From: Candidatus Berkelbacteria bacterium
GTDB lineage: Bacteria; Patescibacteriota; UBA1384; JACPKC01
NCBI GenBank assembly: GCA_016187225.1
Contig: JACPKC010000006.1
Coordinates: forward strand, 25,051 to 89,050
Length of the DNA stretch: 64,000 nt
Direction of reading: 5' to 3'
Below, piece after piece: positions 36,925 through 61,800 of this stretch. The position numbers and the translations under genes are program-made. The notes below the pieces were generated by a model. That model was given only the letters and a program-made list of their open reading frames with translations, did not search any database and was not told the DNA's origin. Position 1 is the stretch's first letter. Each line of letters starts with the position of its first letter.

Positions 36925-37197
36925 ATAACCTCTTCTGTTCTTCTCTAAAACGATTAGGAATAGGGAGTAGTATAAATTCTCATCGCGATCAAGTCAATTG
37001 GATGTACTGGTTTAGATCATACACGCATTGGCGTTGGTTGTTGAATGGTTAGATCGTATTCATGCGGAGTTAGTAAGTCGAGCGCGTCATGGGCATGAGC
37101 GCATCGGTAATTACCCAAAAAAAGAATGATGAAGGATAAGCTAGATGCTCTATAAATGTTAGGCGAGCGATAGCTATAAACGTACGCATGCTTGCAT

Positions 37198-37358
37198 TAG
37201 ATGTATTCCCCAATAATTTTATGCTCGAAATTGGTTTGAATTTGAGCGAAACGAATGAAAGTCGAGAGAGACGTAACGAGAGTTACGTTGACCGAGGCGA
37301 GTATTCGATGGAGCCAAATTCGAGACGATTTAGGCATAAAGGTTATTGGGGAATACAT
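37198..37358. repeat. 26-bp inverted repeat (gatgtattccccaataa.ttttatgc) flanking a roughly 108-bp core, intergenic between greA and mrdA
   Basis: The arms at 37198-37223 and 37333-37358 are near-perfect reverse complements (one mismatch region). The core holds a further small hairpin acgtaac-gagag-ttacgt. Confidence 0.6.
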
Positions 37359-37374
37359 CTAACTATACAGGATT

Positions 37375-39290: not shown

Positions 39291-39770
39291 CTAGGGCCGA
39301 AAGATGAGTTTGTGTTGATGTTTAGATTGAAAGCGAAGGAGTGGCCAAGCTCCAAGAAAACTTAAAATTCCGGCGGCGCGCAAATCTAACCAAAACTGCT
39401 CCCAAGCATTTTGACGCCACGCCAAAACCAGCTCGGCGGTGGCAACTAAAACTAAAGCCATCAGAATTACACCCCACCAAGGAGGAGTTTGGATCTCGCG
39501 CTTCAAGAAGATGCCTAGGCTACTGTAGACCAGTAAAAGTGGTAAAAACGTGCTTCCAAAACGAAGCGGCAAAATTAAATCGATTAGGGCGCTCCCAATT
39601 AAAATCCAGCCTAAACCCAACTCTGCATAACCAAGCACTAAAAAAGGCAGAGCGCCGAGCGCAATCAGATTTGGCTGTCCGCCCATCAAAGGCCAAGCAG
39701 CCAAGGGCCCAGTTTGCGCAAGTACTGTTATATACGCGATGAGAGCGACGATAAGCCATTGAATTTTCAT
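39291..39770 (-). CDS. mreD: Rod shape-determining protein MreD
   Basis: A small polytopic membrane protein between mreC and mrdA. Confidence 0.6.
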   Translation of the reverse strand: MKIQWLIVALIAYITVLAQTGPLAAWPLMGGQPNLIALGALPFLVLGYAELGLGWILIGSALIDLILPLRFGSTFLPLLLVYSSLGIFLKREIQTPPWWGVILMALVLVATAELVLAWRQNAWEQFWLDLRAAGILSFLGAWPLLRFQSKHQHKLIFRP

Positions 39771-39790
39771 AAAATTATTGGAGAGTACAT

Positions 39791-40567
39791 TTAATGATCT
39801 GCCTTGAGAACAAGAACCTCTTCTAATGAAGTAAATTTGACTGGCGTCGTCAGCGCAATCCGCTGAAGAATCTCGGATTCAGTTGAGATAACTCTATCAA
39901 CTGTGCCCACTGGGATATCGGCAACCACCAGATCGCCTAAAGGACTCGTATAAACAAATTCACCTTGGGTAGTTGTCACATCGATTGGCACCGAGTCGAC
40001 CACAAGGCCACGAAAGCCGCCCCTCAAAAGACCTTGCCCGCGTGATTTTTCAAGCACAACCGGGAGTGATGCCGACGGACTCGTGAGTAACTGAACAGTG
40101 CTCGTATTCGCGCCCAATAAATCAATTGTTCCCACTAAAAAACCCTGGCTAATCACCGGCGACCCAACCTGAATTTTATCTTGCTCACCCACATTGATCA
40201 CAATTTCCTCCAGCATTTTACTTGGCGAACGCGCCACGACTTGCGCTGGTAACAAATCCACCCCCGGGATTTCATTTGCTTTTTTCATTTCAGCCTGTAT
40301 CACTCGCTCATTGCGCAAAGTTTCACGCGCCTCGGCAAGCTGACTACTTAAAAATGCATTCTGTTCCTCGGCAGTCTTAAGCTGACTGCGAAGATCGCTC
40401 ACCTCTCTCAAGGCTTGAAAAAAAGAACGACTCCGACTCGCTATTTTGGTTGGGCCCTTGGCAGGGGCGAGTAAAGCTACCGCTCTCTCTCTTAATGGAT
40501 TTAAGACTGGTGAAATTAACATTCCAAACACACCAACGCCAAATATAAGCATTAATGTTCGTGGCAT
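39791..40567 (-). CDS. mreC: Rod shape-determining protein MreC
   Basis: An N-terminal TM helix, a coiled coil and a beta-rich C-terminal domain, downstream of mreB. Confidence 0.8.
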   Translation of the reverse strand: MPRTLMLIFGVGVFGMLISPVLNPLRERAVALLAPAKGPTKIASRSRSFFQALREVSDLRSQLKTAEEQNAFLSSQLAEARETLRNERVIQAEMKKANEIPGVDLLPAQVVARSPSKMLEEIVINVGEQDKIQVGSPVISQGFLVGTIDLLGANTSTVQLLTSPSASLPVVLEKSRGQGLLRGGFRGLVVDSVPIDVTTTQGEFVYTSPLGDLVVADIPVGTVDRVISTESEILQRIALTTPVKFTSLEEVLVLKADH

Positions 40568-44461: not shown

Positions 44462-45718
44462 TTAGACTCTCAATGATCCTACCACGCGCTGAACTACACG
44501 GTCACCCACAGTCGATCGACCAACCAGCTCAATGGCCAAATTGGCCAGCGCCATTGGGGTAATATCCTGAACAGTTTTGAGCTCACCGGTAATATCCTGC
44601 ACAGTTGAGATCTCACTCGGTTTTAAAAAATGAATCAAAGGTTTACGCGCAAAGGGCAAGTGTTTGCCCCAAGTCGCTTCCTTGAGCGCCTCGCTAATTT
44701 CCGGCAGGTTACTGCCGCCACCACAAAGGAGTATTCTTGAAGGGAGCAAATCAACATTTGTAAACTCACTTAAAGTGAGCTCTATCCCCGAAAGCCAAAC
44801 GTCGACATCGGTCGCGAGCGCTTCCTTGGTTGCTGTCTCGTCTTTTTTATCGAGTTTGCCAGCGGTGTAATCCAGCTTACGCGCTTCGGCCTCGGCAAAA
44901 GTTGTGCCAAAAGTGTTCATGATTCGCTTTGTGAAAGCCCGGCCGCCAAGCGCGAACATCTTAGTCCCAATTAAGCCGCCGTTATTAACCACCGCTAGAT
45001 CAGTTGTGCCGCCACCGACATCGATAAAAATTGCCGAGAATTCGCTCGATTCTTCAGGTCCGGTAATGCGAGCAACGGCGTAAGGCTCTGCCGCAACCGA
45101 GAGAAGATCGAGACTCAACTCCTCGGCAATCGTTTGAAGCGCGCCCAAGTGAACAATTGGCGCAAAGGCAGAATAGATGCCAACCTGCACCTCGCGGCCT
45201 TGAAAACCGAGTGGATTCGTTACTTTATAGCCATCGATTCGGACATCAACAATGGCGGCGTTGACAAGTCGAACATCAATTTCAGCCTGACCAGTTTCCC
45301 AGGCTAAAAGCGCCTTAGCGCGATCGTGAGCGCGATTTTGGACACGACCGAGAATTTCCTGCAACTCCTCGCCGGTGATCTTAGCCAAGGGTTCGGGACG
45401 AACGTATTTAATAGTTGTCGTAGTGCCCTTGACGAGCTCGCCAGCAATGCCCACAATCGTTTGATCGGGCAAGTAGTTTGCTTGTTCTGCCGCCCGTTCC
45501 AGCGCGGCCTCGCAATTTTCAATCACACCATGAATATCGGTGACGGTGCCGCCCTGCATATCCGCCAAACGCTGACGTTGCTTACCAACACCGACAACTT
45601 TAGCCGATAAACCATCGACTTCAAAAATCAAGGCTTTGACAAATTCAGTGCCGATATCAAGCGCGATCGCTCGTTTATCATGAGCCGGCGCACGTTTTGC
45701 CCAACTAAAAAGTCTCAT
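44462..45718 (-). CDS. ftsA: Cell division protein FtsA
   Basis: An actin/Hsp70-fold ATPase with the FtsA-specific 1C insert pattern in a 418-aa protein. Confidence 0.85.
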   Translation of the reverse strand: MRLFSWAKRAPAHDKRAIALDIGTEFVKALIFEVDGLSAKVVGVGKQRQRLADMQGGTVTDIHGVIENCEAALERAAEQANYLPDQTIVGIAGELVKGTTTTIKYVRPEPLAKITGEELQEILGRVQNRAHDRAKALLAWETGQAEIDVRLVNAAIVDVRIDGYKVTNPLGFQGREVQVGIYSAFAPIVHLGALQTIAEELSLDLLSVAAEPYAVARITGPEESSEFSAIFIDVGGGTTDLAVVNNGGLIGTKMFALGGRAFTKRIMNTFGTTFAEAEARKLDYTAGKLDKKDETATKEALATDVDVWLSGIELTLSEFTNVDLLPSRILLCGGGSNLPEISEALKEATWGKHLPFARKPLIHFLKPSEISTVQDITGELKTVQDITPMALANLAIELVGRSTVGDRVVQRVVGSLRV

Positions 45719-50866: not shown

Positions 50867-50935
50867 CTATCCTTTCATGGAATATTTCAAAATATCGCAT
50901 TGTTGGCGCAAGGTAAAGAGTTAGGTGGTGAAAAT

Positions 50936-50978
50936 AAAAAGGCCCGGGCATTCAAACGATGCTCACGGGCCTTTTTTC
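50936..50978. terminator. Bidirectional rho-independent terminator at the core/high-GC-island junction
   Basis: The sequence aaaaaggcccgg...ccgggccttttttc has a GC stem with A-runs and T-runs on both sides. Confidence 0.65.
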
Positions 50979-51330
50979 ACCGACGCGGTTGAACGAGGTC
51001 GAAGACCCCGTTGCCGGGGTCCTCGGCGCCTCCCCACTCTTCATCGGGCGGCCATTCACGGCCGACCCAACGAAGAATTGGAGGCGCAAAGATTAGAATC
51101 ATAAGCAGTAAAAAACTGCTTATGATCTGTTCCAGCGTCAATCGCGTCACCTCCTTCGCTGGGTTCGATTTTGATCTTCGAAAAGATCAAGCCCAGCGAG
51201 CAGGTTCCCTCTAACCCACTCCGGATTCAGGAGAGGGCGGTACTTCTAATCAAAGAAACACTGCCCCAATCCGGAGTGGATGAGAGGGGAGGAGCTTGGG
51301 AGCTCCTCATTGACTTGCATTGGTCTATCT

Positions 51331-51454
51331 ACAATAATAGATACACCAATGCAGACACCCCGACCACCAGCAATATAATTGCGATAGCCAGGGCAAAGAT
51401 GAGAGTGCGAAATGACAATTGCTCGTCATACTCGACCCTCTTTTTCTTTTCCAT
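51331..51454 (-). CDS. 41-aa hydrophobic micropeptide (MEKKKRVEYDEQLSFRTLIFALAIAIILLVVGVSALVYLLL)
   Basis: Preceded by the conserved repeated leader ...ATCGCGAGAGGAGGTGAAAA-ATG with a perfect SD. The gene is below the track cutoff. Confidence 0.4.
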
Positions 51455-51607
51455 TTTTCACCTCCTCTCGCGATGATTAATTACGCGACGGGATTTCCTC
51501 GGGAGTGGCATCAGACTCTCCCGAGGTGAAGGAGTCGCATTAATAACCGTGAGAGAAGCCCGACCCCGTTCGACTCGCTCTGCGAGTTCGCTCGGGGTCG
51601 GAAAAAA

Positions 51608-52240
51608 TCACCATGGCCAGTATTTCGCCCGCTTCTGACTCTTCATCAGAAGCGGGCGACTGGGCGCCCAACCACACTCCTTACTGCCCATGGGGCATAG
51701 GGTGTAGTGGGCACCCGAGCCGCAGGCGCACTCGGCCGCCTGGGCCAGAGCCTCGAGAACTTCAGGTCGGTTTCTGAAGTTCCCGAGAACTTCAGGTCGG
51801 TCGAGTTGGCGAACCTCGACGGGTCCGCTGATCGCCTCGAAAAAAAATTCGAGGTAGACCGATTCCCGCTGGCTAAGCGGGTCAGTCACCCCCTCGTACT
51901 GAAGGGTCCAACCGGCCACGCCTTGCAAGGCAACGAGCCTCGCGCCGGAGGTCGAGGAGGTCCAGGCGAAGGACGTGACGTCCTCCTCCAGATACCCCCT
52001 CCAACCAGAGTGCTCCCCAGGCACTCGATGGGCGACGGGAGCGGTCGGAGGCATTACCTCCCGCCCGCCCAAAGAATTTTCCGCCATATAGACGAGCCCC
52101 TCGCGGGGTGCCGCCTCGGGTTCGCAGTCCTCCCCCCGTGGCATTTGGTTGGTTAGCCCGAAGGCCAACGAAACCAAATTTTCCCACGAGGTTTCCCCCG
52201 CGAAAATGTTTTGCTGGGTGGCGCTGGTGAGGGTCGTCAT
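51608..52240 (-). CDS. Hypothetical protein (210 aa) with an internal 19-bp tandem duplication
   Basis: An RBS GGGAGGG sits upstream of the ATG. The duplication ccgagaacttcaggtcggt x2 (51758-51810) encodes RPEVLGNFRNRPEVLE. Confidence 0.5.
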   Translation of the reverse strand: MTTLTSATQQNIFAGETSWENLVSLAFGLTNQMPRGEDCEPEAAPREGLVYMAENSLGGREVMPPTAPVAHRVPGEHSGWRGYLEEDVTSFAWTSSTSGARLVALQGVAGWTLQYEGVTDPLSQRESVYLEFFFEAISGPVEVRQLDRPEVLGNFRNRPEVLEALAQAAECACGSGAHYTLCPMGSKECGWAPSRPLLMKSQKRAKYWPW

Positions 52241-52482
52241 GTTGACGCCCTCCCTTCTTGCCCATTTTTCGATGGGCGGATCGTGGGTTTTTAACGTGTT
52301 TTACCACACGGATGACAAAGCTAACTCATCCCCATTGGGCATTAGTTAGCAGGGCATCACCCTGCTGCTATTTTAGGACCCGAGCACAGAGTCCTCGCTC
52401 TTCACTTCGATCCTCGTCGGATTGACGAAAAGCGAAGAAAGAGCCCTGCCTCACCGGTCGAAACCGACGAAGCAGGATGGGA

Positions 52483-52860
52483 TCAGTCGTCGGGCTGGCG
52501 ACGCGCGTCTGCCCCGAGTTCATCGAACTCGAGAACTAGACGTCTGACCCGTCGGAAACGAACAAACCGGTAGTACCGGCCGTTCACCTCCCAATCCGAT
52601 TCCTCCGGGTGCGCCACGATCTCGGCTTCCGACCAGAGTGGTCGAAGTCCCAGATCGACCATTCGGGCGAGAACAGAGAGCGGGACGACGGTAATCACAT
52701 CGTCATATCCACCCTCGCGGACTCGTCGCACGATCGTCTCGGCATTGTCGAACGGGCGCGAATCGCGCTCAACCCTCACATCCGCCCCAAACAACCGGCG
52801 CAAAGCGCCGAGCTGGACGGGATTCATCCCGTGCCGGCTGATCCAAAGGATTCGTTTCAT
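52483..52860 (-). CDS. Hypothetical protein (about 125 aa; start MKRILWISRHG...)
   Basis: An RBS GGAAAGGAGGGGG sits upstream of the internal ATG at 52860. The longer track ORF extends upstream without an RBS. Confidence 0.45.
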   Translation of the reverse strand: MKRILWISRHGMNPVQLGALRRLFGADVRVERDSRPFDNAETIVRRVREGGYDDVITVVPLSVLARMVDLGLRPLWSEAEIVAHPEESDWEVNGRYYRFVRFRRVRRLVLEFDELGADARRQPDD

Positions 52861-52877
52861 CGAATCCCCCTCCTTTC

Positions 52878-53066
52878 CTAGTTGATCCCGACGGTCTGCC
52901 CCGAGTATTGCGCGGCGATATACTGCGCATCCTCGAAATCGACCGGCTCGGACAAAATTTGGAACTCGCCCGGGTTTCGCGGGTCGGCAAACTCGGTCCA
53001 CAGCACCAGATAATTCCGGTCCGTGGTCGGCTGTCCTGACTCCAGCTCAACGATATGGATGGCCAT
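52878..53066 (-). CDS. Hypothetical 62-aa acidic protein
   Basis: It is preceded by the conserved repeated leader ...ATCGCGAGAGGAGGTGATCAC-ATG. Confidence 0.45.
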   Translation of the reverse strand: MAIHIVELESGQPTTDRNYLVLWTEFADPRNPGEFQILSEPVDFEDAQYIAAQYSGQTVGIN

Positions 53067-53195
53067 GTGATCACCTCCTCTCGCGATAATTGATTACGCA
53101 ACAACCCTTAAGTCGCGCGCTGATCGATAACCGTGAGAGAAGCCCGACCCCACAATCCACCGAAGCGAACGTGGGGTCGGGAAAAACAACTACTC
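53063..53195 (-). promoter_or_regulatory. Repeated intergenic module: terminator-like hairpin (cccgacccc...ggggtcggg), a conserved cttctctcacggttat box, and the leader gcgtaatNaatNatcgcgagaggaggtg-ATG. A second copy lies at 51455..51612.
   Basis: Two copies have the same order of conserved blocks and a variable spacer. Each directly precedes a minus-strand small gene. Confidence 0.6.
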
Positions 53196-53429
53196 GTCGA
53201 CCGGAAAGACGAAATACTGGAATACGCTGAAACTAGTTGCCGCGGCAACCGTTCGCGCATCCTCCAATGCTTCATCCACCGTATCGTGCGTGCGAGTCAG
53301 AAAACAAACGTGCCCGTCGTAGCGATAAAGTTTTGCGCCCAACCGCTCGTACTGAACAACATCGTCAACTGGCTCGCAGTAGTTGTTCTCGACAAAGCCA
53401 CCGCGGTATTTCATTTTTTTCTCCTCCAT
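53190..53429 (-). CDS. Hypothetical 79-aa protein
   Basis: An RBS GGAGGAGAAAAAAATG. It lies downstream of the 53564..54151 gene in the same orientation. Confidence 0.4.
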   Translation of the reverse strand: MEEKKMKYRGGFVENNYCEPVDDVVQYERLGAKLYRYDGHVCFLTRTHDTVDEALEDARTVAAATSFSVFQYFVFPVDE

Positions 53430-53563
53430 TCTTTTGATGGGGCAGTCGCTATCAGCGAGATGTCCATCAAAGTTCAGAGGCGCGGTGGCTTAAAAAACTG
53501 TTGGCCAGCCTTCCGAGCGGCTGGCAAAAAAAGTGAACCTCGCTCGGACGAGGGAGATGAGGG

Positions 53564-54151
53564 CTAGATTTGCGGCATGCGCCGCTCATCTAGCCACTCC
53601 CACTCGCTGGGGAGTGAGTCCCTCTCGGGGTAGGGGGTGGTATCGTCCCACCCCTGATTCTGCCACGCCGCCGTGTCGGCCCGCCGCTTGACGCGGCCGG
53701 TCATGAGGGCCTCGTCCTCCGGGGCCGAACCGGAGGATATCAGTCCCCCCTGGTAACCCCGCCACATCTGGTGGCGGAGATACTTGTCCCCCGCCAGGAT
53801 GGGTCCAAGCGAGGAATAGCACCAGGGATGCCGCGAGAGATACTCTCGCAGGAACCCCTCGAGTCCGACCTCGAACTCCAGGCGCCGAAGCGCCCGGCTC
53901 GCCGTCGCCCGCAGTTCGTGCGGGAGGGACTCCTCCTCCCCCACAAAGGGGAAGTAGGGTCCGTGTGCCGTATCTGGCACCTCCCCCAGGGCCCCAGACA
54001 ATTTGTAGTACGGGACCTGGTTGACCCGCACTCCCAGGATGGCCGGCGAGGCGATCCATCCTTGGTGCTTTCCGTCCACCTGGACGGAGTAGAGCCCGGC
54101 GACCTCGCCGGACTCTACCAGGGTCAGGGTGCTGTTCTGGGTGCTCTGCAT
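53564..54151 (-). CDS. Hypothetical 195-aa protein (MQSTQNSTLTLVESGE...) sharing a 5' module with the gene at 58185..58625
   Basis: The start is at the ATG inside the conserved roughly 135-bp promoter/leader repeat (RBS GGAGGTG). The first roughly 10 codons are homologous to the paralogous cassette. Confidence 0.5.
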   Translation of the reverse strand: MQSTQNSTLTLVESGEVAGLYSVQVDGKHQGWIASPAILGVRVNQVPYYKLSGALGEVPDTAHGPYFPFVGEEESLPHELRATASRALRRLEFEVGLEGFLREYLSRHPWCYSSLGPILAGDKYLRHQMWRGYQGGLISSGSAPEDEALMTGRVKRRADTAAWQNQGWDDTTPYPERDSLPSEWEWLDERRMPQI

Positions 54152-54266
54152 GGCAGGCACACCTCCATTCTTAAACTCCCGCTTGCGCGGGGCGATGGAA
54201 GGACTATAAATAGTCAGCCCGTCGCCCAACATAAACGAGTTATTTCCGCTCATCCTCGATTCCTCA
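54130..54266 (-). promoter_or_regulatory. Repeated promoter/leader module, about 135 bp, copy 1; copy 2 lies at 58614..58749
   Basis: The two copies are near-identical, for example gtgctctgcatggcaggcac...cccgcttgcgcggggcgatggaaggactataaatagtcagccc...cataaacgag...catcctcgattcctcatcggtttcga. The module contains a GCAA-tetraloop hairpin cccgc-gcaa-gcggg in the leader and the start codon of the downstream gene. Confidence 0.7.
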
Positions 54267-54408
54267 TCGGTTTCGATGAAAGTCCGAGGTAACTCAAAAA
54301 AAACTTTTGGCCAGCCGCGATGCGGCGGTGAAGCTTGATTAGCATCAAACCTCGCCGCCACAACCCGAGTTTGCAGAATCCCTGTTAATTTCCTATACTT
54401 GAGTTATT

Positions 54409-54648
54409 ATGCCTAATGTCTTCATTCCCAAAGAATATGAACGGACTCGCGAGCTCGTCGCCATCCCTAAAAAGAAGTATGAGGCTTATCTTGAGGCGCA
54501 ACGCGCTCAAGCACGACCAGCCAAACATGCCCAATCCAAACGAGATCAAGAGCTGACGGAGGTACTGGAAATTATCCGCAGAGGTAAAGCCGACTACCGC
54601 GCCGGTAGAATTCGGACTGTCCAATCGCTTTCGGAACTCATGGAGTAA
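54409..54648 (+). CDS. Type II antitoxin (RelB/ParD/Phd-like)
   Basis: A 79-aa protein immediately upstream of a RelE/ParE-like toxin gene, with a 5-nt gap. A sigma70-like promoter TTGCAG-17-TATACT lies upstream. Confidence 0.6.
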   Translation: MPNVFIPKEYERTRELVAIPKKKYEAYLEAQRAQARPAKHAQSKRDQELTEVLEIIRRGKADYRAGRIRTVQSLSELME

Positions 54649-54653
54649 ATCCA

Positions 54654-54926
54654 GTGCGTCGACCGATCGCAACTATCGATGTGACGCCAGATTTTGAAAA
54701 GGCTTTTCGTCGCCTGCCAGTTCGTATCCAGCGTTTGGCCACCAAGAAAACAAGTTGGTTTCGCGATAATGCACACGATTCCAGGCTAAAAACTCATAAG
54801 TTGAGCGGCCAACTCAACGAACACTGGTCGTTTTCCGTAAATCGCGAGTACCGGATTCTATTTGAGTTCACGAGTAATACCACCGCACTCTTCCACTCAA
54901 TTGGCACCCACGCCATCTATCGTTGA
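54654..54926 (+). CDS. Type II toxin, RelE/ParE superfamily
   Basis: A 90-aa protein with the motif HKLSGQLNEHWSFSVNREYRILFEF, characteristic of RelE/ParE-fold toxins. Confidence 0.65.
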   Translation: MRRPIATIDVTPDFEKAFRRLPVRIQRLATKKTSWFRDNAHDSRLKTHKLSGQLNEHWSFSVNREYRILFEFTSNTTALFHSIGTHAIYR

Positions 54927-55294
54927 AGTGCGTCTGCAACCCGTAAGACCGATCCGGATCAATCCCCAGGCGCCAAAACTCGATGTGAGTGGAGAGATGC
55001 TTCCATCGCTGGTCACAACTATTCGTTGCGTCAAGTAAAAAGATCCCTTCCTCCGATTTTAGGGGAAGAGAAGAAGCGGGGCGGGAGGCAAGCGTGCCTG
55101 CGACCGCCCCAAGCTTTGGCCGGGTTCCGATCGATTGATCGGAAGCGTTAAGACGGGAGCAATCCTTCGGGGTGTTCGCTCAACCGTCTTGCCGGCCTAC
55201 CCGCAAAAGTTGCGGGTAGGGTTGGATTCTCCGCCGTCGGCGGATTCTTACTCTCGCGCCACCAACCAAGGCGCGGGAGGGCAGTGTTTATGCT

Positions 55295-55510
55295 AGACCA
55301 GTCTCGCAAAGAGACAGTCGGCTTCATGCTCGACGTCCTCTCCCGAGTCTGATCTAGACTCATTTCCACAGCAGAGACACTGTCTGTACTCAAACAGTGT
55401 GCCTCCACTGGAGAAATTGTGCAGTTCGTTGTTTTTGATCCACTGCACAATTTCTCTTTTCAGCTCGGGATCACTTTCGATCGCCCGAGCAAGATTGGAG
55501 AAAAGCATTC
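55295..55510 (-). CDS. Small 71-aa Cys-containing protein (…YRQCLCCGNESR…)
   Basis: An RBS GGGAGGAGGGAGAAAGA-ATG. It contains a perfect 12-bp inverted repeat within the CDS. Confidence 0.35.
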
Positions 55511-56194
55511 TTTCTCCCTCCTCCCACCCTCGCGGGTAGGATGCCTGGTTGGCCGCGGGTGCGGGCCAGGGCGGGCAGATTCCCAATTCTTCCGTGATCG
55601 TGGGTTTCGACCACGCTCTGCCAGTCCGTGGAGGACTAGCATCCCGTTCTTTGAACGAGGAGCGTCCCCACGGAGCCTGGTGGCTCGGAAGAATTGGGTT
55701 TCCCCTTGTTCGTCCACTCACCAACTGCCAGCGGTGAGAGACAGGGCGGTTCGCCCCTCCAAGCGCGCGAAGACTAACTGGTCGAAGCGCGCGCTAGAGC
55801 CGAGTTTTGGTTACTTGCTTACTCGGGTGCAAGGTTGTCTTTATTCTCTGGGCGTTGCTGCCGGCAGACACATTTTTTTTTACGAGAGTGTCCACTCGTT
55901 CCAATTATTACTAATTGGATCGTTCCCTGCGCTGACCGGGCAAGGAGACCGGACTGATTTATGTTTTAGAAGCAACGCCAGTGAACGTTGCTCAACCGCG
56001 CGCGTGCCTTCATTAAAGAGGCCGCTTCTCACGGATAACTATGGTCACCCCTTAAAACCGCTCCGACAGTTTTAAGGGGATCTTTTACGCCACCCGACGT
56101 TGCCATTATGGTTTAGGCAACTCTCCCCGCCGACCTCAACGCTACAACGCGCTTAGGGCCAACGGTTGACGGGTGGGAGCCTGTCGTGGCACCC

Positions 56195-56602
56195 CTATGC
56201 GAGAAGGGGCAGAAGCACCTGCCGACGCTCCTGGTCAAATGTGTCCTTTAATAGACACCGTTTCGACCAGGCTTTAGATGGTTCAGCATTCAGGTACTGA
56301 ACCATCTGTCTGTACGCCATCTTGTCCGACGACGCACAGAACGCCCGTGCTCCCCCCTCGAGCTGACGGCCAACCTCCTCCTGGAGGTCCCAGATTGACG
56401 AAAGATTTTCCCATCCTTCGCCTCCAAGACTCTCGTCCAGGAAGAGCACGGCGTACTGGCGTTCAGCCAGCGCCTGCCGCGTCTCGGCCGCCGTCGTAGG
56501 AGCCACGACGTCCACGCCAACCGGCAGGACAGCAAGGAGCCGAGAGAGGAACATCTCTCGCCACTCCTCGCAGTCCTCGATCAGCAGGACGCTTTGGTTC
56601 AT
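56195..56602 (-). CDS. Standalone response-regulator receiver-like domain protein (degenerate)
   Basis: LLIEDCEE...VLFLDESL places acidic residues at CheY-like positions. The RBS is GGAGGTGAAAAG-ATG. A perfect 11-bp inverted repeat lies within the CDS. Confidence 0.45.
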   Translation of the reverse strand: MNQSVLLIEDCEEWREMFLSRLLAVLPVGVDVVAPTTAAETRQALAERQYAVLFLDESLGGEGWENLSSIWDLQEEVGRQLEGGARAFCASSDKMAYRQMVQYLNAEPSKAWSKRCLLKDTFDQERRQVLLPLLA

Positions 56603-56929
56603 CTTTTCACCTCCTTCGTTGGACTCAATTTTGATTTACCGATCAAATCCAACGAGGAAATGAATGCGCTCCTTAAGAACAAATCTGCTGCAAAAGTTCA
56701 ACCATGAATCAAACTCCAGTCACTATGGCTCTAATGACGTGCTCGCCCATCATCTTAACGACCTAACCCATTTCCGCACCGCGATCGCCCGCTGGCTGAC
56801 GAAACAAGTTGACTGATCAAGCCTTTCGAGACTTCGTTGACGATCTCCGATTCACGATTTTATAAGTTAATAAATCATGAACCCGAGTCGATCTCCCTCT
56901 ACCTGCTTGCACAGGCGAGGGAGAAAAAT

Positions 56930-57226
56930 CTACATCGCTGCCCGAACCCGGTCGGCAGCTAGTCGCTCTCTACGCCACCTCTCCTCGAGGTACTCGGCGT
57001 ACCAAGCGAGCAACTGCTCGGTGGTGCCGTCGAGAGCGGCGTTAACCGCCTCGAGCTGGGCGGCTTCTTTCTCCAGGTCGAGGCCGTCGAGCGGCTCAAG
57101 CTGGAGAAAGTACGCCGCTTCACGAATGGCGGCGTCCTTGGCGCGGCGCACCACGGCCGGAACCATGGCGTTCTTGGCCTCCGCCTCGGCGTACCGGCCC
57201 TCCCGGTTGTCGCGTTCGGTCGCCAT
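56930..57226 (-). CDS. Hypothetical 98-aa acidic/helical protein
   Basis: An RBS GGAAGGGAGG sits upstream of the ATG. Confidence 0.4.
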   Translation of the reverse strand: MATERDNREGRYAEAEAKNAMVPAVVRRAKDAAIREAAYFLQLEPLDGLDLEKEAAQLEAVNAALDGTTEQLLAWYAEYLEERWRRERLAADRVRAAM

Positions 57227-57301
57227 TTTGAGCGACCTCCCTTCCTTAATTGGTATTCAGGGAACCACCCTGCTGCTATTTTAGGACCCGAGCACAGAGT
57301 C

Positions 57302-57351
57302 CTCGCTCTTCACTTCGTCTTTCGATGAATCGAAAAGCGAAGAAAGAGCCC
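57302..57351. repeat. 50-bp repeat, left copy, flanking the vapBC cassette (ctcgctcttcacttcgtctttcgatgaatcgaaaagcgaagaaagagccc)
   Basis: It is identical 50/50 to the copy at 58098..58147. It forms an imperfect palindrome with bulges. A variant copy with a different 17-nt centre lies at 52398..52447. Copies 52358.. and 57266.. also share a 36-bp 5' extension. Confidence 0.8.
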
Positions 57352-57427
57352 GGCTCTCCGGTTGATTTGAAGATCATAGTTGGAATCAAGAGTGAAAGAT
57401 TGGTAAGATAATTGACGAAAGGAACTG

Positions 57428-57730
57428 ATGCCCAAAGTAATCAGTAAACCAAAAATCCGCGTTCCTGATGCGTACCAGGGTTATCAACGTTTGGTGGCGA
57501 TTTCGGAAACAGATTACCAGCGCCTGGTTGACAAGATGCGACCTGCCAAAACCGATCCGGCCGATCGCGCCACTGTCTGGAAAGCAGTGGAAGGCATCTG
57601 GGCTGACCGAGACGATCTTGATCCAATCCGTTATCAACGGCAATTACGGAACGAGTGGAATAAACGCGAAAAACGCCAGTATCGCTTGGGCGGGCGGGCA
57701 AAAAATTCGACGCACGCTAAGCGCTCATGA
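57428..57730 (+). CDS. vapB: VapB-like antitoxin
   Basis: A 100-aa protein that overlaps the downstream PIN toxin gene by 4 nt. Its GC is clearly lower than the surrounding island. Confidence 0.55.
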   Translation: MPKVISKPKIRVPDAYQGYQRLVAISETDYQRLVDKMRPAKTDPADRATVWKAVEGIWADRDDLDPIRYQRQLRNEWNKREKRQYRLGGRAKNSTHAKRS

Positions 57731-58092
57731 CGCTCGACACCAATATCATCATCACGCTTCTCAAAAACGAAGCGTCTTTGGTGAAATGGTTCCAGCAACT
57801 GCAGCGCGACCAGGTTATTTTCATATCCTCGATCACGCGAGCTGAACTTTTATCAGAATCAAAGTCAACCGCTAGGCAACTTGCTCGGATCGCACGATTT
57901 TTGAATTCCTTCCATTCTGTGCCACTAGATGACAAAATTGCCGATCATGTCGCAAGCTTGCGGCGCGCCTACTCTAAACTGCATGTTCCTGATGCCGCCG
58001 TGGCCGCCACTGCAATCATCATGGGCACGCCACTCGCCAGTCGCGACAAGGTATTTCGAAAGATTAAGGAACTCGATTTGATTGTGCCATAG
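57727..58092 (+). CDS. vapC: VapC PIN-domain toxin
   Basis: A PIN domain with a conserved acidic residue in MTLDTNIII near the N-terminus and conserved Asp/Glu further on, in a 121-aa protein. Confidence 0.7.
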   Translation: MTLDTNIIITLLKNEASLVKWFQQLQRDQVIFISSITRAELLSESKSTARQLARIARFLNSFHSVPLDDKIADHVASLRRAYSKLHVPDAAVAATAIIMGTPLASRDKVFRKIKELDLIVP

Positions 58093-58097
58093 GCTTT

Positions 58098-58147
58098 CTC
58101 GCTCTTCACTTCGTCTTTCGATGAATCGAAAAGCGAAGAAAGAGCCC
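58098..58147. repeat. 50-bp repeat, right copy, flanking the vapBC cassette
   Basis: See the left copy. It is an exact direct repeat. Confidence 0.8.
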
Positions 58148-58184
58148 CCCGCTCGAAATGTTTTGCGAGACGGGGGGACAACGT

Positions 58185-58625
58185 TTAGACAGGCGCCTCG
58201 AGCGGGCGCTGGACGAGGGCTTTGCGCACCTCGACCCCGACGACTTCGTAGCCGCCGAAGGCGAGGATGTCACGCCCTCGCTCATCCTGGCCGGTCACGA
58301 TCACCCGCCCGTCCTCGCCCCGCTTGAAGACCTGGCGCAGGACATGAATGCCCTGCTCGGCCAGCCCCTCGACGAGGGCGATCATGACCGGCTCGGGCCC
58401 GCCGGCCTCGACCGCCACCACCTCCCTCTCCTCGGTGGCCTCGATCATGTCGATGACCGCCTGGACGGCGGCCACCGGATCGGCGCCATAAGGCACGTCC
58501 TCGGTGACCACCTCGAGGTCGTCACCGAAGACGACCGCGAGGGCCGCTCGACGGTCCTCACTCAACGGGTGACGCATCACCCGCAGGATTACCGGGGTCA
58601 GGATGGTGTTTTCGGTGCTCTGCAT
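58185..58625 (-). CDS. Hypothetical 146-aa protein (MQSTENTILTPV...) carrying the shared 5' module
   Basis: It has the same promoter/leader/first codons as the gene at 53564..54151. Confidence 0.5.
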   Translation of the reverse strand: MQSTENTILTPVILRVMRHPLSEDRRAALAVVFGDDLEVVTEDVPYGADPVAAVQAVIDMIEATEEREVVAVEAGGPEPVMIALVEGLAEQGIHVLRQVFKRGEDGRVIVTGQDERGRDILAFGGYEVVGVEVRKALVQRPLEAPV

Positions 58626-58872
58626 GGCAGGCACCTCCTCTCATGAGCTCCCGCTTGCGCGGGGCGATGGAAGGACTATAAATAGTCAGCCCAGCGCCCA
58701 ACATAAACGAGTCAGTTCACACTCATCCTCGATTCCTCATCGGTTTCGACCCGTTCTAAACGAAGTCGAAGAATGAGAGCCCGAGGTGAGCCCCCGACCG
58801 CATTCAGCAATGGGTCAGGGTCAAGCAGTCCGGCGCAAGTAAGCTACCTGGCCGGACTGAAGTCATGAGGCG

Positions 58873-61800
58873 CTAGCGGCGGTTGAACCGCGCTTTGAGC
58901 GCCTCGATCTGGGCCTGGGCGGTGGCCGCGTCTTCGGCAGAAGGTTCTGCCGGCGCGGCTTCGCGCGCCTTAGCCCGTTTCTTGCTCTGCCCCGATCCAG
59001 CCGATTCGCTGGCGCGAACCTCCGGCTCGGGGACTTGCGGTTTGTCTTCCGGGAAGGGCGGCTCGAGCCGCACTAGCGTGAGACGGAAGGAGCCAGTGTT
59101 GACCAACTCCCTTACCTCGCTCACGTAGTACGACTTGCCCGCAACCGGCTCCGGTGAGCGGCGGTCGAGCACGAACTTGGCGTGCTTCGATCCGGCCTCC
59201 CACTGGAGTTCTCCGGTTTTGGGGTGTCGCCCCTGGCGGAACGAGAGCTTGAACCATGCACGCTGGGAGACCATCTCCTCAGCGCGCTGGTAATCAGCCT
59301 CGTACCGCTCCCGATTCCTGGCCGCCCACGCCTCGTCCGTAAGAATGACTCCCGTGAAGTCATTCCGAACGAGTGGGCAGGCGCAGTCCGTCGGGAACCA
59401 CTCGGCGGCAACAGTGCCATCGATGAAAATTTTCACCGTGGCCACCGCATCCCACCGTTTATGGGTCCCTTCCGGCCGCACCTCGGCCAGGACAGCTTCG
59501 TCGTACTGGGTCAGCCCACTGTTTGACTGGGCCCAGACCACCCGGTTGATCGGGTGGAGGTTGGTCTGGCGGCAAACCAAACGGGTTTGACCCGTCTGGT
59601 CGCCCCACTCGGTATGCTCTTCAACCATCGGGTGGGAGCAAACCGGGCAGGTACCAAGGAGCGTGCGCAGGCGATCGTTCGCCGATCGCTTCAGCTCCTC
59701 TTTCTGCCGCTTGGCGTCCTCGGCCTTCTTTTGGAGCTCGGCCGTTTTCACGGAGAGCTCCTCAAAGAGCGCGCACGTCGACACGAAGTCGTGGCGCTTA
59801 AAGGCTTCGGTCGCCTCAGTCGCAAGGCGCTCAACCTCCCTCTCCTCCTTATAGGAGAGCAAACCATCGCGCTCATAGGTCGCGATCGTTTCCTGCTCCT
59901 CCCGAATGAGGGCGAGGGCGGTCTCCGCCTCGGGGCGCTTGGTCTCGTTGGTCTGGTGGTGAGCCAGCGCCAACTCGACCCGCGCCCGGACAGTCGCGAG
60001 CAGGTCGAGCGCCTTCTTCGGCTCCGGGGTGCGGCTGTAATAGCCGTCGCTCGTCCGGAGCAAGGCGCGCGCCTGCTCGATCTTTGCCGAGAGTCCCTCC
60101 GACTCGTACCAGCTGTCTTTCCCCGCTTCACGCGAGGTCAGACCGTAAGCCTGGTACTCGTCGAGGTTCACCCCGGCAAGCAGTTGGGCGACCGCGTCGG
60201 CTTCAGCTTGCGCTTCGGCCACGTAGCGGTCGCGATTTCTGCGTTCGTCTTCCTCGGCATCGAGCTTGGCCTTGGCTTTGATGGCCTCGGCCTGGCTCGT
60301 CTGCGCCTCCTCGCAAGTGCGGTACCATTTCTGGTACCAGCTCGCGTAGTAGGCGCGGAACGCCGGGTAGGCGAACGCCCCGGTCACGGCGTCATAGATC
60401 TCGGGTTCGGCGACCGCGGGGAGCGGCTCCAAACCCTTGACCACGAGTGTCGTGTCGGGGTGGTTGGTCGTGAACGCCTGCCAGGCCAACTCCAGCCGTT
60501 GCGCCTCGATCTGCTCGCGCAGGGTCGAGACGTCGGTGCCAGAGATGGCGGTGTAGCCCTTGTCCTGCAGCTTGAGCGTGTAGCTCGCGCCGCTCGGAAT
60601 GAGATGCTCCACCACTGCCTGGTCGGCGTTCTGGATGGTCGCCACCGACACCTGGATGGTGACGGTCTGCTTCTTCTCGCTCGAGTAGTACGACGCGCTG
60701 TCGTACTTATACTCGACGTTGCAGACCTCGCCGCCGATCAGCACGGTGTCGGGCGCCTGCTCGCGGATGTACGTTGCTTCCTCACCGGAAACAAACGTCG
60801 CCCGCGCCAGGCCAAAGTCGATGCCCTCGATCGCCGGATCGTCCATCCGGTAGATCTCGCCGAGTCGCTCGGCATAGATCTTGGCCGCCTCACTTTGAGT
60901 GAGCGGCCCCCGAACGGCGCCCCCGGACTTGGCTTGAAGTTCGGTCAGCTCGGCATTGACTGCCTGGCCAACTTCCCCCAGCCAAACTCGGGCAAACTGG
61001 TCGGCCAAGGCTTTGGTCGCCTCGGCGTTTCTCTGGGCGGCCACCACCGTCGTTGCGACTTCGGTGCCGTTGAACACCAGCACCTCGTCACAGACGACCT
61101 CGCCTCGCTCCTCACTCCACCGATAGTTCCGGCAGAGATTGGAGGCGAGGTGAGGCGCCACCTCGGCCAGCCAAGTCGGGTCAACCGCCGAGGCATTTTT
61201 GATCAGGCGGAGCGTCATTGAACGCCCTCGCCGATCTGTAATGCCAAGGTCGAACGGTTGGCCGACCAGCCACTCGGGCAAACTCGAGCGCTTCATCAAG
61301 CAGCTCTCCTTTGCCAGCTCTCGTTCGCCGTTGCCGCCGTTCTGGTATCGACCACTATAGGAAGAGCTCTTCCTATACAAATGGTCAACCAACCCAGTCG
61401 AGCAGGCCTTGAGAGTGTCTTGCTGAGAGCCGAAGCTCCCAAACTCAACATCCCCGACCCCCCGCACGGCGTCAGCAAGCGTGGGAATCTGGGCGTAGGC
61501 ACGCTTGATGTTCATGCCCACAATCCCAGCTTCCCGCCAGTCAACCTGCTTGAGGCTCCGATCCGCCTCCCGCAGGGCCCGTTTGACCTGCTCTCTCCGG
61601 CTCTCGCGCTGTTTGCGCTTGAGGTTCTTGTTAAAAACCTCTTGCCGCGGCGCGGTGCCGAGCAGGTGCTCAATCGTGTTCTGGCCAATCAAGGCGACCA
61701 GAACCGCCAGTTGGGCAAGTAGATCGCTCTCAGTTTCCTTGACACCGAAAAACGATCGCCACTCGCCACTTCTGGCAACGATGTCGCCGGCGTCAAGGCA

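Follow-up and report, generated by a model that had tools for sequence, protein, structure and literature searches.

A putative 5′ expression region duplicated at the heads of two unrelated genes in a high-GC island of a Candidatus Berkelbacteria bacterium

In a 64,000-nt stretch of Candidatus Berkelbacteria DNA (hereafter the window; GCA_016187225.1, contig JACPKC010000006.1, positions 25,051 to 89,050), two minus-strand genes, here called gene A and gene B, begin with nearly the same sequence. The shared segment, M1, runs from the intergenic region through the start codon to codon 12 of each gene, after which no similarity remains at the DNA or protein level. The reading we favor, with a probability of about 0.6, is that M1 is a composite intergenic expression module (terminator tail, purine-rich box, palindrome with a −10-like TATAGT, GNRA hairpin, strong ribosome-binding site (RBS) and start-codon hairpin), and that duplication or recombination placed a copy of the 5′ end of a gene-B-type gene, its first 12 codons included, ahead of the unrelated ORFan gene A. 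Gene A would thus have become a chimera with borrowed promoter, leader and N-terminus. The perfectly conserved blocks of M1 would be the parts under functional constraint and, since we take them to be so constrained, genes A and B are probably under the same transcriptional and translational control. Together with at least three further modules that recur between genes, M1 would belong to a high-GC island acquired horizontally, and the module repeats probably also act as homology patches for rearrangement. The genes and the two M1 copies are as follows.

53564..54151, minus strand: gene A, 195 aa, MQSTQNSTLTLV...; an ORFan whose residues 1–12 come from M1.
58185..58625, minus strand: gene B, 146 aa, MQSTENTILTPV...; belongs to an alpha/beta family that is uncharacterised, with the conserved core beginning near residue 10–13 (TPV-ILRVMRH).
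54116..54290, minus strand: M1 copy A, defined by alignment with copy B; terminator tail remnant, 28-nt box, palindrome with −10-like hexamer, GCAA hairpin, RBS, start-codon hairpin and gene A codons 1–12.
58590..58787, minus strand: M1 copy B; same layout as copy A plus 24 extra nt, TTCTTCGACTTCGTTTAGAACGGG, and gene B codons 1–12.

M1 is a real two-copy repeat. The copies are direct repeats on the minus strand, running from 54290 to 54116 (copy A) and from 58787 to 58590 (copy B). A blastn comparison of the island with itself aligned 58749 to 58590 with 54276 to 54116 at 88.9% identity over 162 columns (E 3e-48), and a repeat search of the window returned the same pair split into families D1, D4 and D7. 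Once a 24-nt indel is allowed in a gap-tolerant local alignment, homology reaches upstream to ACCTCGG (54290 / 58787), which gives lengths of about 175 nt for copy A and 198 nt for copy B. The preliminary description of this DNA had noted near-identical sequence ahead of both genes and had named GACTATTTATAGTC, a CCCGC-GCAA-GCGGG hairpin, GGAGGTG and ATG as shared, and we find each of these in both copies. Its module of 135–165 bp at 54130–54266 is real and lies inside copy A but is shorter than the repeat, and the similarity that it followed for about 10 codons continues through codon 12, with 8/12 residues identical, before divergence becomes complete. What the copies share is a complete 5′ expression region including the start codon, not merely a generic terminator. 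When up to 3 mismatches are allowed, sub-patterns of M1 of 21 and 29 nt each have exactly two occurrences in the window where 0.00–0.01 would be expected, so the repeat is not due to chance; the same search found no third copy there.

Larger collections likewise yielded no further copies. The exact M1 23-mer GACTATTTATAGTCCTTCCATCG has 0 matches in viral, species-representative genome and JGI metagenome collections, and exact invariant patterns have none in the metagenome collection (GTGCCTGCCATGCAGAGCAC) or the genome collection (CGATGAGGAATCGAGGATGAG). A blastn search of M1 against plasmids returned nothing, and all island modules, when compared by blastn with every retrieved related locus, matched only the window's own contigs. 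The suggestion of a family of variable effector genes is not borne out: only two copies are known, with no further one in the window or in the viral, genome and metagenome collections, and neither protein bears an effector mark.

One M1 copy might be a chimeric join, given that the source is a metagenome-assembled genome and that a 45-nt identical core is too long for short k-mers to bridge. Against this, about 18 positions distinguish the copies on the two sides of the core, and the flanks peculiar to each copy recur in three Logan contigs from two other sequencing runs, contig L002 matching the left flank of copy B exactly and contig L001 the right flank of copy A. The Logan contigs end inside the core, the behaviour expected of a k=31 graph where a repeat is genuine. 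Because independent contigs carry copy-specific flanks and break within the 45-nt core, we discard an assembly artefact, which has almost nothing left to recommend it.

The two copies share a series of discrete elements.

54249..54276 (copy A) and 58722–58749 (copy B), minus strand: invariant 28-nt purine-rich box TCGAAACCGATGAGGAATCGAGGATGAG, repeat family D7.
M1, both copies, minus strand: invariant 18-nt block ACTCGTTTATGTTGGGCG.
54176..54220 (copy A) and 58648–58692 (copy B), minus strand: 45-nt block identical in both copies.
54202–54215 (copy A), minus strand: palindrome GACTATTTATAGTC, inside the 45-nt block in both copies.
54203–54208 (copy A), minus strand: −10-like TATAGT embedded in the palindrome.
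54195–54202 (copy A), minus strand: anti-Shine-Dalgarno sequence CCTTCCAT, inside the 45-nt block.
54178–54191 (copy A), minus strand: CCCGC-GCAA-GCGGG hairpin, inside the 45-nt block in both copies.
54160..54166 (gene A) and 58632–58638 (gene B), minus strand: Shine-Dalgarno (SD) sequence GGAGGTG.
54141..54160 (copy A) and 58615–58634 (copy B), minus strand: predicted start-codon hairpin GTGCCTGC-CAT-GCAGaGCAC, identical in both copies.

The linker between the 45-nt block and GGAGGTG is variable (15–17 nt), and the ATG (54149–54151 in A, 58623–58625 in B) lies in or at the loop of the predicted start-codon hairpin. The left boundary of M1 is ragged, with an indel; the right boundary falls within the open reading frames (ORFs). 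The 24 nt present only in copy B resemble the terminator tail of a second module, M2, which also contains a related box, CCGACGAGGATCGAAGTGAAGAG. Perfect runs of 28, 18, 45 and 21 nt alternate with regions in which mismatches cluster (permutation p = 0.004 for the sum of squared run lengths and p = 0.018 for the longest run), and the perfect blocks match the box, the palindrome with its −10-like hexamer and GCAA hairpin, and the hairpin from the SD to codon 4. Nucleotide conservation of codons 1–4 can be ascribed to the start-codon hairpin, since it is identical in both copies. Codons 5–11 contain 5 nucleotide differences, all non-synonymous (Q/E, S/T, T/I, L/P), and the shared N-terminal residues look like a by-product of where the copy boundary fell rather than a functional tag. 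Two candidate short ORFs within M1, a leader peptide MLGxGLTIYSPSIAPRKRE and a mini-ORF MRNRG, were rejected; neither has an SD, and a 2-nt indel shifts the frame between copies.

By all the sequence comparisons made, the proteins that follow M1 are unrelated, as had been proposed. BLASTP detects no similarity between them beyond codon 12, and gene A, read in any frame, does not match profiles of the gene B family or of the family of g125, a distant gene B paralogue described below. A frameshifted gene B paralogue was therefore rejected as the identity of gene A. Among 5.8 billion clustered proteins gene A finds only itself; it has no match in Pfam, PHROGs, PADLOC or PDB sequences, and tblastn against phages returned nothing. 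Its GC content by codon position (GC1 0.67, GC2 0.48, GC3 0.83) is uniform along the gene and like that of the island's helicase gene and gene B, and because this pattern matches other island genes we regard gene A as a real coding gene. A single-sequence AlphaFold model of it was unusable (pLDDT 52.6). ARAGORN called a 96-nt tRNA-Ser(aga) inside gene A at 53708–53803 on the minus strand, where the Rfam tRNA model has no match; the region has the uniform coding signature, and the call is probably a false positive.

Gene B, by contrast with this ORFan, belongs to a conserved alpha/beta family with 59 representative relatives. Its model is confident (pLDDT 94.8) and predicts alternating strands and helices, with residues 1–9 as coil. 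Neither Pfam nor PDB sequences give a match. The best PDB fold matches found by Foldseek are the CARF proteins Cam1 and Csm6, at a TM score of only 0.39; the PADLOC CARF3 model matches weakly (E 1e-3 over 52 residues), and a Csx3-like gene adjoins P0192, the closest gene B homologue. A CARF-like identity is weakly indicated by these predictions and is a lead rather than a result. Among viral proteins the closest folds are those of uncharacterised phage proteins, about 125–145 aa long, and a single-sequence query found no viral relatives of gene B. The paralogue lies in the same island.

52483..52860, minus strand: g125, distant gene B paralogue, which lacks the 12-residue extension and opens directly with the family core (MKR-ILWISRH).

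Gene B and g125 are joined by reciprocal profile matches (hhalign probability 97%, E 1e-10), and the g125 family is well conserved and occurs also in six IMG/VR viral contigs. In two other contigs a small gene (64–76 aa) stands immediately upstream of the g125 relative, and in a third the nearest upstream gene encodes 163 aa and is about 350 nt away. We rejected the possibility that the g62–g125 pair arose by local insertion into an M1-headed gene, the 64–76-aa gene also preceding g125 relatives elsewhere.

Comparison within the gene B family bears on the direction of copying. The family core has the form V/I-L-R-I-T/S-R-H, and most members have only 2–5 residues before it. In P0192, which is 70% identical to gene B, the extension is exactly as long (MKNTSTLSPAPV versus MQSTENTILTPV), and the N-terminus of P0221 reads MTKSITTATTPI. 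Codons 10–12 of M1 encode TPV in gene B and TLV in gene A. They look like gene-B-family sequence, because P-V/I directly before the core recurs in P0192, P0203, P0221, P0227 and P0239. With moderate confidence, these protein comparisons point to M1 as the native 5′ end of a gene-B-type gene, of which gene A would have received a copy and so become a chimera. Separately, the 12-mer ACTATTTATAGT at the core of the M1 palindrome is found again, in unchanged orientation, some 300 nt upstream of P0192 (L009:655–700); a long terminator-like hairpin there, CCCAGCAGAACTATTTATAGTTTCTGCTGGG, has the 12-mer at its tip and a T-run after it. The 12-mer is absent upstream of P0221; it is low in information content, being itself palindromic, and its occurrence near P0192 is a possible echo of M1.

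TATAGT (54208–54203) is the sole promoter-like element of M1. Its aligned counterpart in M2 is TAAAAT, equally far from CTGKGCT, and the palindrome GACTATTTATAGTC, or a longer imperfect palindrome, GGGCGAcGGGctGACTATttATAGTCctTCCaTCGCCC, could be a candidate operator. The leaders of both copies fold better than shuffled sequences (z = −2.8 and −3.5). When CCUUCC is part of the RNA, it is predicted to pair with the SD, enclosing the GCAA hairpin, while a second, conserved hairpin takes in the AUG; the predicted SD pairing survives 7 linker differences between the copies. A transcript starting about 7 nt after TATAGT would begin with the GCAA hairpin. One reading of these predicted folds is that read-through RNA would be translationally silent, while RNA from the module's own promoter would be translatable and guarded by a 5′ hairpin. 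Opening the ribosome-binding region would cost 15.6 and 19.9 kcal/mol in the two copies, against a host mean of 11.3 ± 4.6. Rfam has no match in M1, either in a window scan at gathering thresholds or in a scan of 50900–59000 at E ≤ 1.

M1 lies in an island whose other intergenic regions are also built of repeats. GC content is about 47% up to about 51 kb and 55–67% beyond, and the island runs off the window end; contig L002 continues about 2.7 kb past that end and carries four called genes (a 243-aa one partly in the window), including a GNAT acetyltransferase. The island contains a 1411-aa DEAH/HrpA-like helicase (HYW32_01710 of Candidatus Berkelbacteria in GenBank, on a 161-kb contig) and many small minus-strand ORFans without Pfam, PHROG or PADLOC match. 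Homologues of the helicase (56–62% identity) are likewise high-GC genes (61–67%), and on contig L004 the high-GC helicase gene lies within 35–41% GC sequence of the Candidate Phyla Radiation (CPR), beside def/fmt/rpsP/trmD. This suggests that a helicase-centred element moves horizontally among Patescibacteria. The toxin-antitoxin (TA) cassettes and recurring modules of the island are these.

54409..54926, plus strand: antitoxin and HigB/RelE-like toxin cassette (HigBA), just upstream of M1 copy A.
57428..58092, plus strand: antitoxin and PIN (VapC) toxin cassette (VapBC), flanked by 68-nt direct M2 repeats.
57249..57369 (copy b, minus strand), 52341–52461 and, in part, 58098–58165: M2; terminator tail, box and CTGTGCT-N7-TAAAAT, families D2 and D3.
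51458–51489 / 53071–53102: M3, a short leader/RBS module preceded by an identical terminator-like 25-mer at 51543–51567 / 53127–53151.
51147–51175 / 56607–56635: M4, a short leader/RBS module.
54310..54339, minus strand: 30-nt sequence 20 nt upstream of M1 copy A, between HigBA and M1, equal to L002:1–30.

Nearly every intergenic region of the island is made of recurring pieces (also D5, D9 and D10), which fall into at least four module families including M1. Copy numbers are 2 for M1, 3 for M2 and 2 each for M3 and M4, all of them in the high-GC island beside ORFans or TA cassettes; M3, M4 and the 25-nt terminator-like element are each common to two unrelated small genes. M1 and M2 align over the terminator tail, a CCGAYGAGGA-TCGARG box and CTGKGCT-N7-TATAGT/TAAAAT, the 5′ half of M2 being homologous to M1, and this alignment identifies them as diverged relatives. 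The 68-nt direct M2 repeats (57302–57369 / 58098–58165) are 88% identical, with the first 51 nt identical, and bracket VapBC, the arrangement that one crossover within M2 would leave if it had brought in this opposite-strand cassette. The two M1 copies bracket a 4.47-kb segment from gene B through HigBA, and the order M1-M2-M4 is colinear in both island halves. The 30-nt sequence at 54310–54339 is identical to the start of L002, which continues into the far island end about 12.4 kb away; it is one more repeat or else marks a junction (alternative, tandem or circular) of a unit of 12.4 kb. Cassette shuffling, raised in the preliminary description, is a plausible history of M1, because other intergenic regions of the island are also built of recurring modules and a TA cassette is flanked by direct repeats.

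A gene-free stretch of 686 nt at 55509–56194, between g135 and a 71-aa ORF, is rich in strong local hairpins, and on either strand its folding is much better than that of shuffled sequences (z = −6.2 for minus and −6.1 for plus; 20 shuffles each). It has no Rfam match at E ≤ 1 and, judged by its predicted folding, may be a structured noncoding RNA or an array of hairpin elements.

Known mosaic systems offer several comparisons. The known system nearest to M1 and M2 is that of the promoter-early stem-loop (PeSL) elements, mobile regulatory cassettes found in T4-type phages (Arbiol, Comeau & Krisch 2010, PMC2839356; Comeau et al. 2014, PMC4122927). PeSLs combine terminator and promoter in a conserved motif of about 100 bp, which reaches to the SD and start codon and lies beside ORFans in plastic regions; they recombine, insert or delete cassettes and form mini-circles (PMC2839356, PMC4122927). 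M1 and M2 are similarly composite regions of about 100–200 nt with a terminator or stem-loop and a putative promoter region, end in an SD and start codon, recur in small numbers beside ORFans in a plastic region, and bracket cassettes as direct repeats. They differ in several respects. PeSLs reside in T4-type phages and number dozens of copies, whereas here 2 M1 and 3 M2 copies lie in a cellular CPR island; M1 has a −10-like TATAGT without a −35 and no detectable sigma-70 consensus, its homology runs 12 codons into the genes, and the M1 and M2 copies are known from sequence alone while mini-circles and recombination are known for PeSLs. The window carries PBP2, MreC, a DHH-family protein and tRNAs, and the helicase is annotated in Candidatus Berkelbacteria, so this is not a T4-type phage; none of ten island proteins scanned matched PHROGs.

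Other likenesses are partial. Mosaic lambdoid phages have conserved boundary or linker sequences at module junctions and "morons" with their own promoter and terminator (see also PMC2839356). Like M1, these short conserved stretches join unrelated genes at gene borders, with a terminator and promoter for each gene, but both M1 copies are in one genome, 4.5 kb apart. The vsp/vlp surface-protein families of Mycoplasma have a conserved 5′ noncoding region and first codons followed by divergent coding sequence, as do genes A and B; those families comprise many homologous lipoproteins with a shared signal peptide and phase variation, whereas A and B encode two unrelated, cytoplasmic-looking proteins with no signal peptide. 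The island resembles an integron cassette array in its small, mostly same-strand ORFans with interspersed TA cassettes and repeats, but its repeats are 5′ expression modules instead of attC sites and each cassette has its own expression signals. No integrase or recombinase domain was found in the island proteins scanned, in the window and the 2.7 kb beyond, and the repeat search found no inverted-repeat pair in the region and thus no attC-like imperfect inverted-repeat architecture across M1; M1 is accordingly not assigned to integron cassettes. Nor does it qualify as a miniature inverted-repeat transposable element or insertion sequence, having no terminal inverted repeats in that search, a ragged left boundary and a right boundary inside ORFs.

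The duplication of M1 might instead be a by-product of insertion, in which a 4.47-kb circle or foreign segment carrying gene B through HigBA entered by a single crossover in a resident M1 upstream of gene A; M1 would then be chiefly a portable recombination site, as has been proposed for PeSL shuffling in T4-type phages. That the direct M1 repeats bracket exactly gene B through HigBA is what such an event would leave, VapBC between its 68-nt M2 repeats provides a parallel on a smaller scale, and the colinear M1-M2-M4 order, the 30-nt sequence by copy A that is joined elsewhere to the far island end, as an alternative or circular junction would be, and the PeSL precedent (PMC2839356, PMC4122927) all fit. 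Yet no M1A–M1B recombinant junction is seen, the k=31 contigs simply breaking at the core; an 11% difference between the copies would make the event old or homeologous; no related island without the segment was found; and by the TP[VI] argument M1 would in part be coding sequence of gene B and not neutral linker. We consider insertion unlikely but deserving of real weight, and it is compatible with duplication of a gene-B-type 5′ end, not exclusive of it. A broader proposal, which we think doubtful, is that M1–M4 are PeSL-like portable terminator-promoter-leader cassettes in a cellular CPR (Berkelbacteria) island. With the modules as patches of homology, ORFan and TA cassettes would enter the island, leave it (possibly as circles) and acquire new 5′ ends, with in-frame grafting of N-termini and no need for a dedicated recombinase; an SD-sequestering leader would silence read-through, so that each cassette would be translated only from its own promoter, and the adjacent HrpA-like RNA helicase might modulate the leader.

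Two further alternatives ascribe the similarity to function and fare worse. If M1 were a dedicated cis-regulatory RNA (of riboswitch, thermometer or protein-binding type), structure and not recombination would explain the resemblance, and the well-folding leaders with their retained SD pairing (z = −2.8, −3.5), together with the invariant GNRA tetraloop and start-codon hairpins, would be accounted for. Identity, however, extends upstream over the terminator tail and box, which are foreign to a leader RNA; no Rfam family matches even at E ≤ 1, the opening energies are no outliers among island genes, and two sequences are too few for a real covariation test. We judge this account improbable. Still harder to sustain is a functional tag of 12 N-terminal residues, serving secretion, localisation or partner binding of cargo or effector proteins. 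It would explain why 8/12 residues are identical and why the start codon and frame are kept in both copies, but all 5 nucleotide differences in codons 5–11 alter the amino acid, with 0 synonymous, and codons 1–4 are accounted for by the conserved RNA/DNA hairpin. The peptide is polar, lacks signal-peptide character and is coil over residues 1–9 in the confident gene B model; the non-coding part of M1 is better conserved than the coding part, and two proteins only carry the peptide.

Several observations weigh against duplication of a functional gene-B-type 5′ end in front of gene A. The direction of copying rests on 4/12 identities and a short motif, and with two copies and no orthologous locus, constraint on the perfect blocks is inseparable from recent gene conversion. 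The loci of helicase homologues at 62% and 56% identity on other CPR contigs have a different downstream region and no M1. A sigma-70 scan found no promoter in M1 and no acceptable −35 before TATAGT, so that the earlier label of promoter is unconfirmed; promoters of CPR bacteria are poorly known. If transcription starts about 7 nt after TATAGT, near 54196, CCUUCC lies outside the mRNA and the SD of copy A is predicted to be free; because such a start excludes the anti-SD, sequestration would be limited to read-through transcripts. The opening energies of the M1 copies also fall within the range of other island genes (12–25 kcal/mol) and are not exceptional.

Three observations concern other parts of the window. 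A cobalamin riboswitch match at 2074–2200 on the minus strand scores 31.9 bits against a gathering score of 31.5. A motif of about 29–48 nt, CATTAGATGTATTCCCCAATAATTTTATG, occurs at 37195–37244, 37315–37362 and 39768–39796, inverted on both sides of the PBP2 gene and an adjoining 159-aa ORF, upstream of mreC; the unit that it bounds is not an insertion sequence, since the enclosed genes are PBP2 and a small protein. Two tandem units of 29–30 nt, GGTAATATCCTGAACAGTTTTGAGCTCAC, 86% identical, lie at 44558–44616.

The M1 duplication is ordinary mosaic evolution of a mobile element, of a known kind and not a new type of system, and as the evidence stands it fits that picture and opens no new question. 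If the duplication of a gene-B-type 5′ end is correct, it would be a clean, small case of a mobile island creating an expressed chimeric gene from a ready-made promoter, leader, RBS and N-terminus, and recurring regulatory cassettes would structure gene turnover in a CPR bacterium. Promoters and regulatory RNAs of the CPR are almost uncharacterised, and the invariant blocks of M1 are candidate promoter, operator and leader elements for Patescibacteria.

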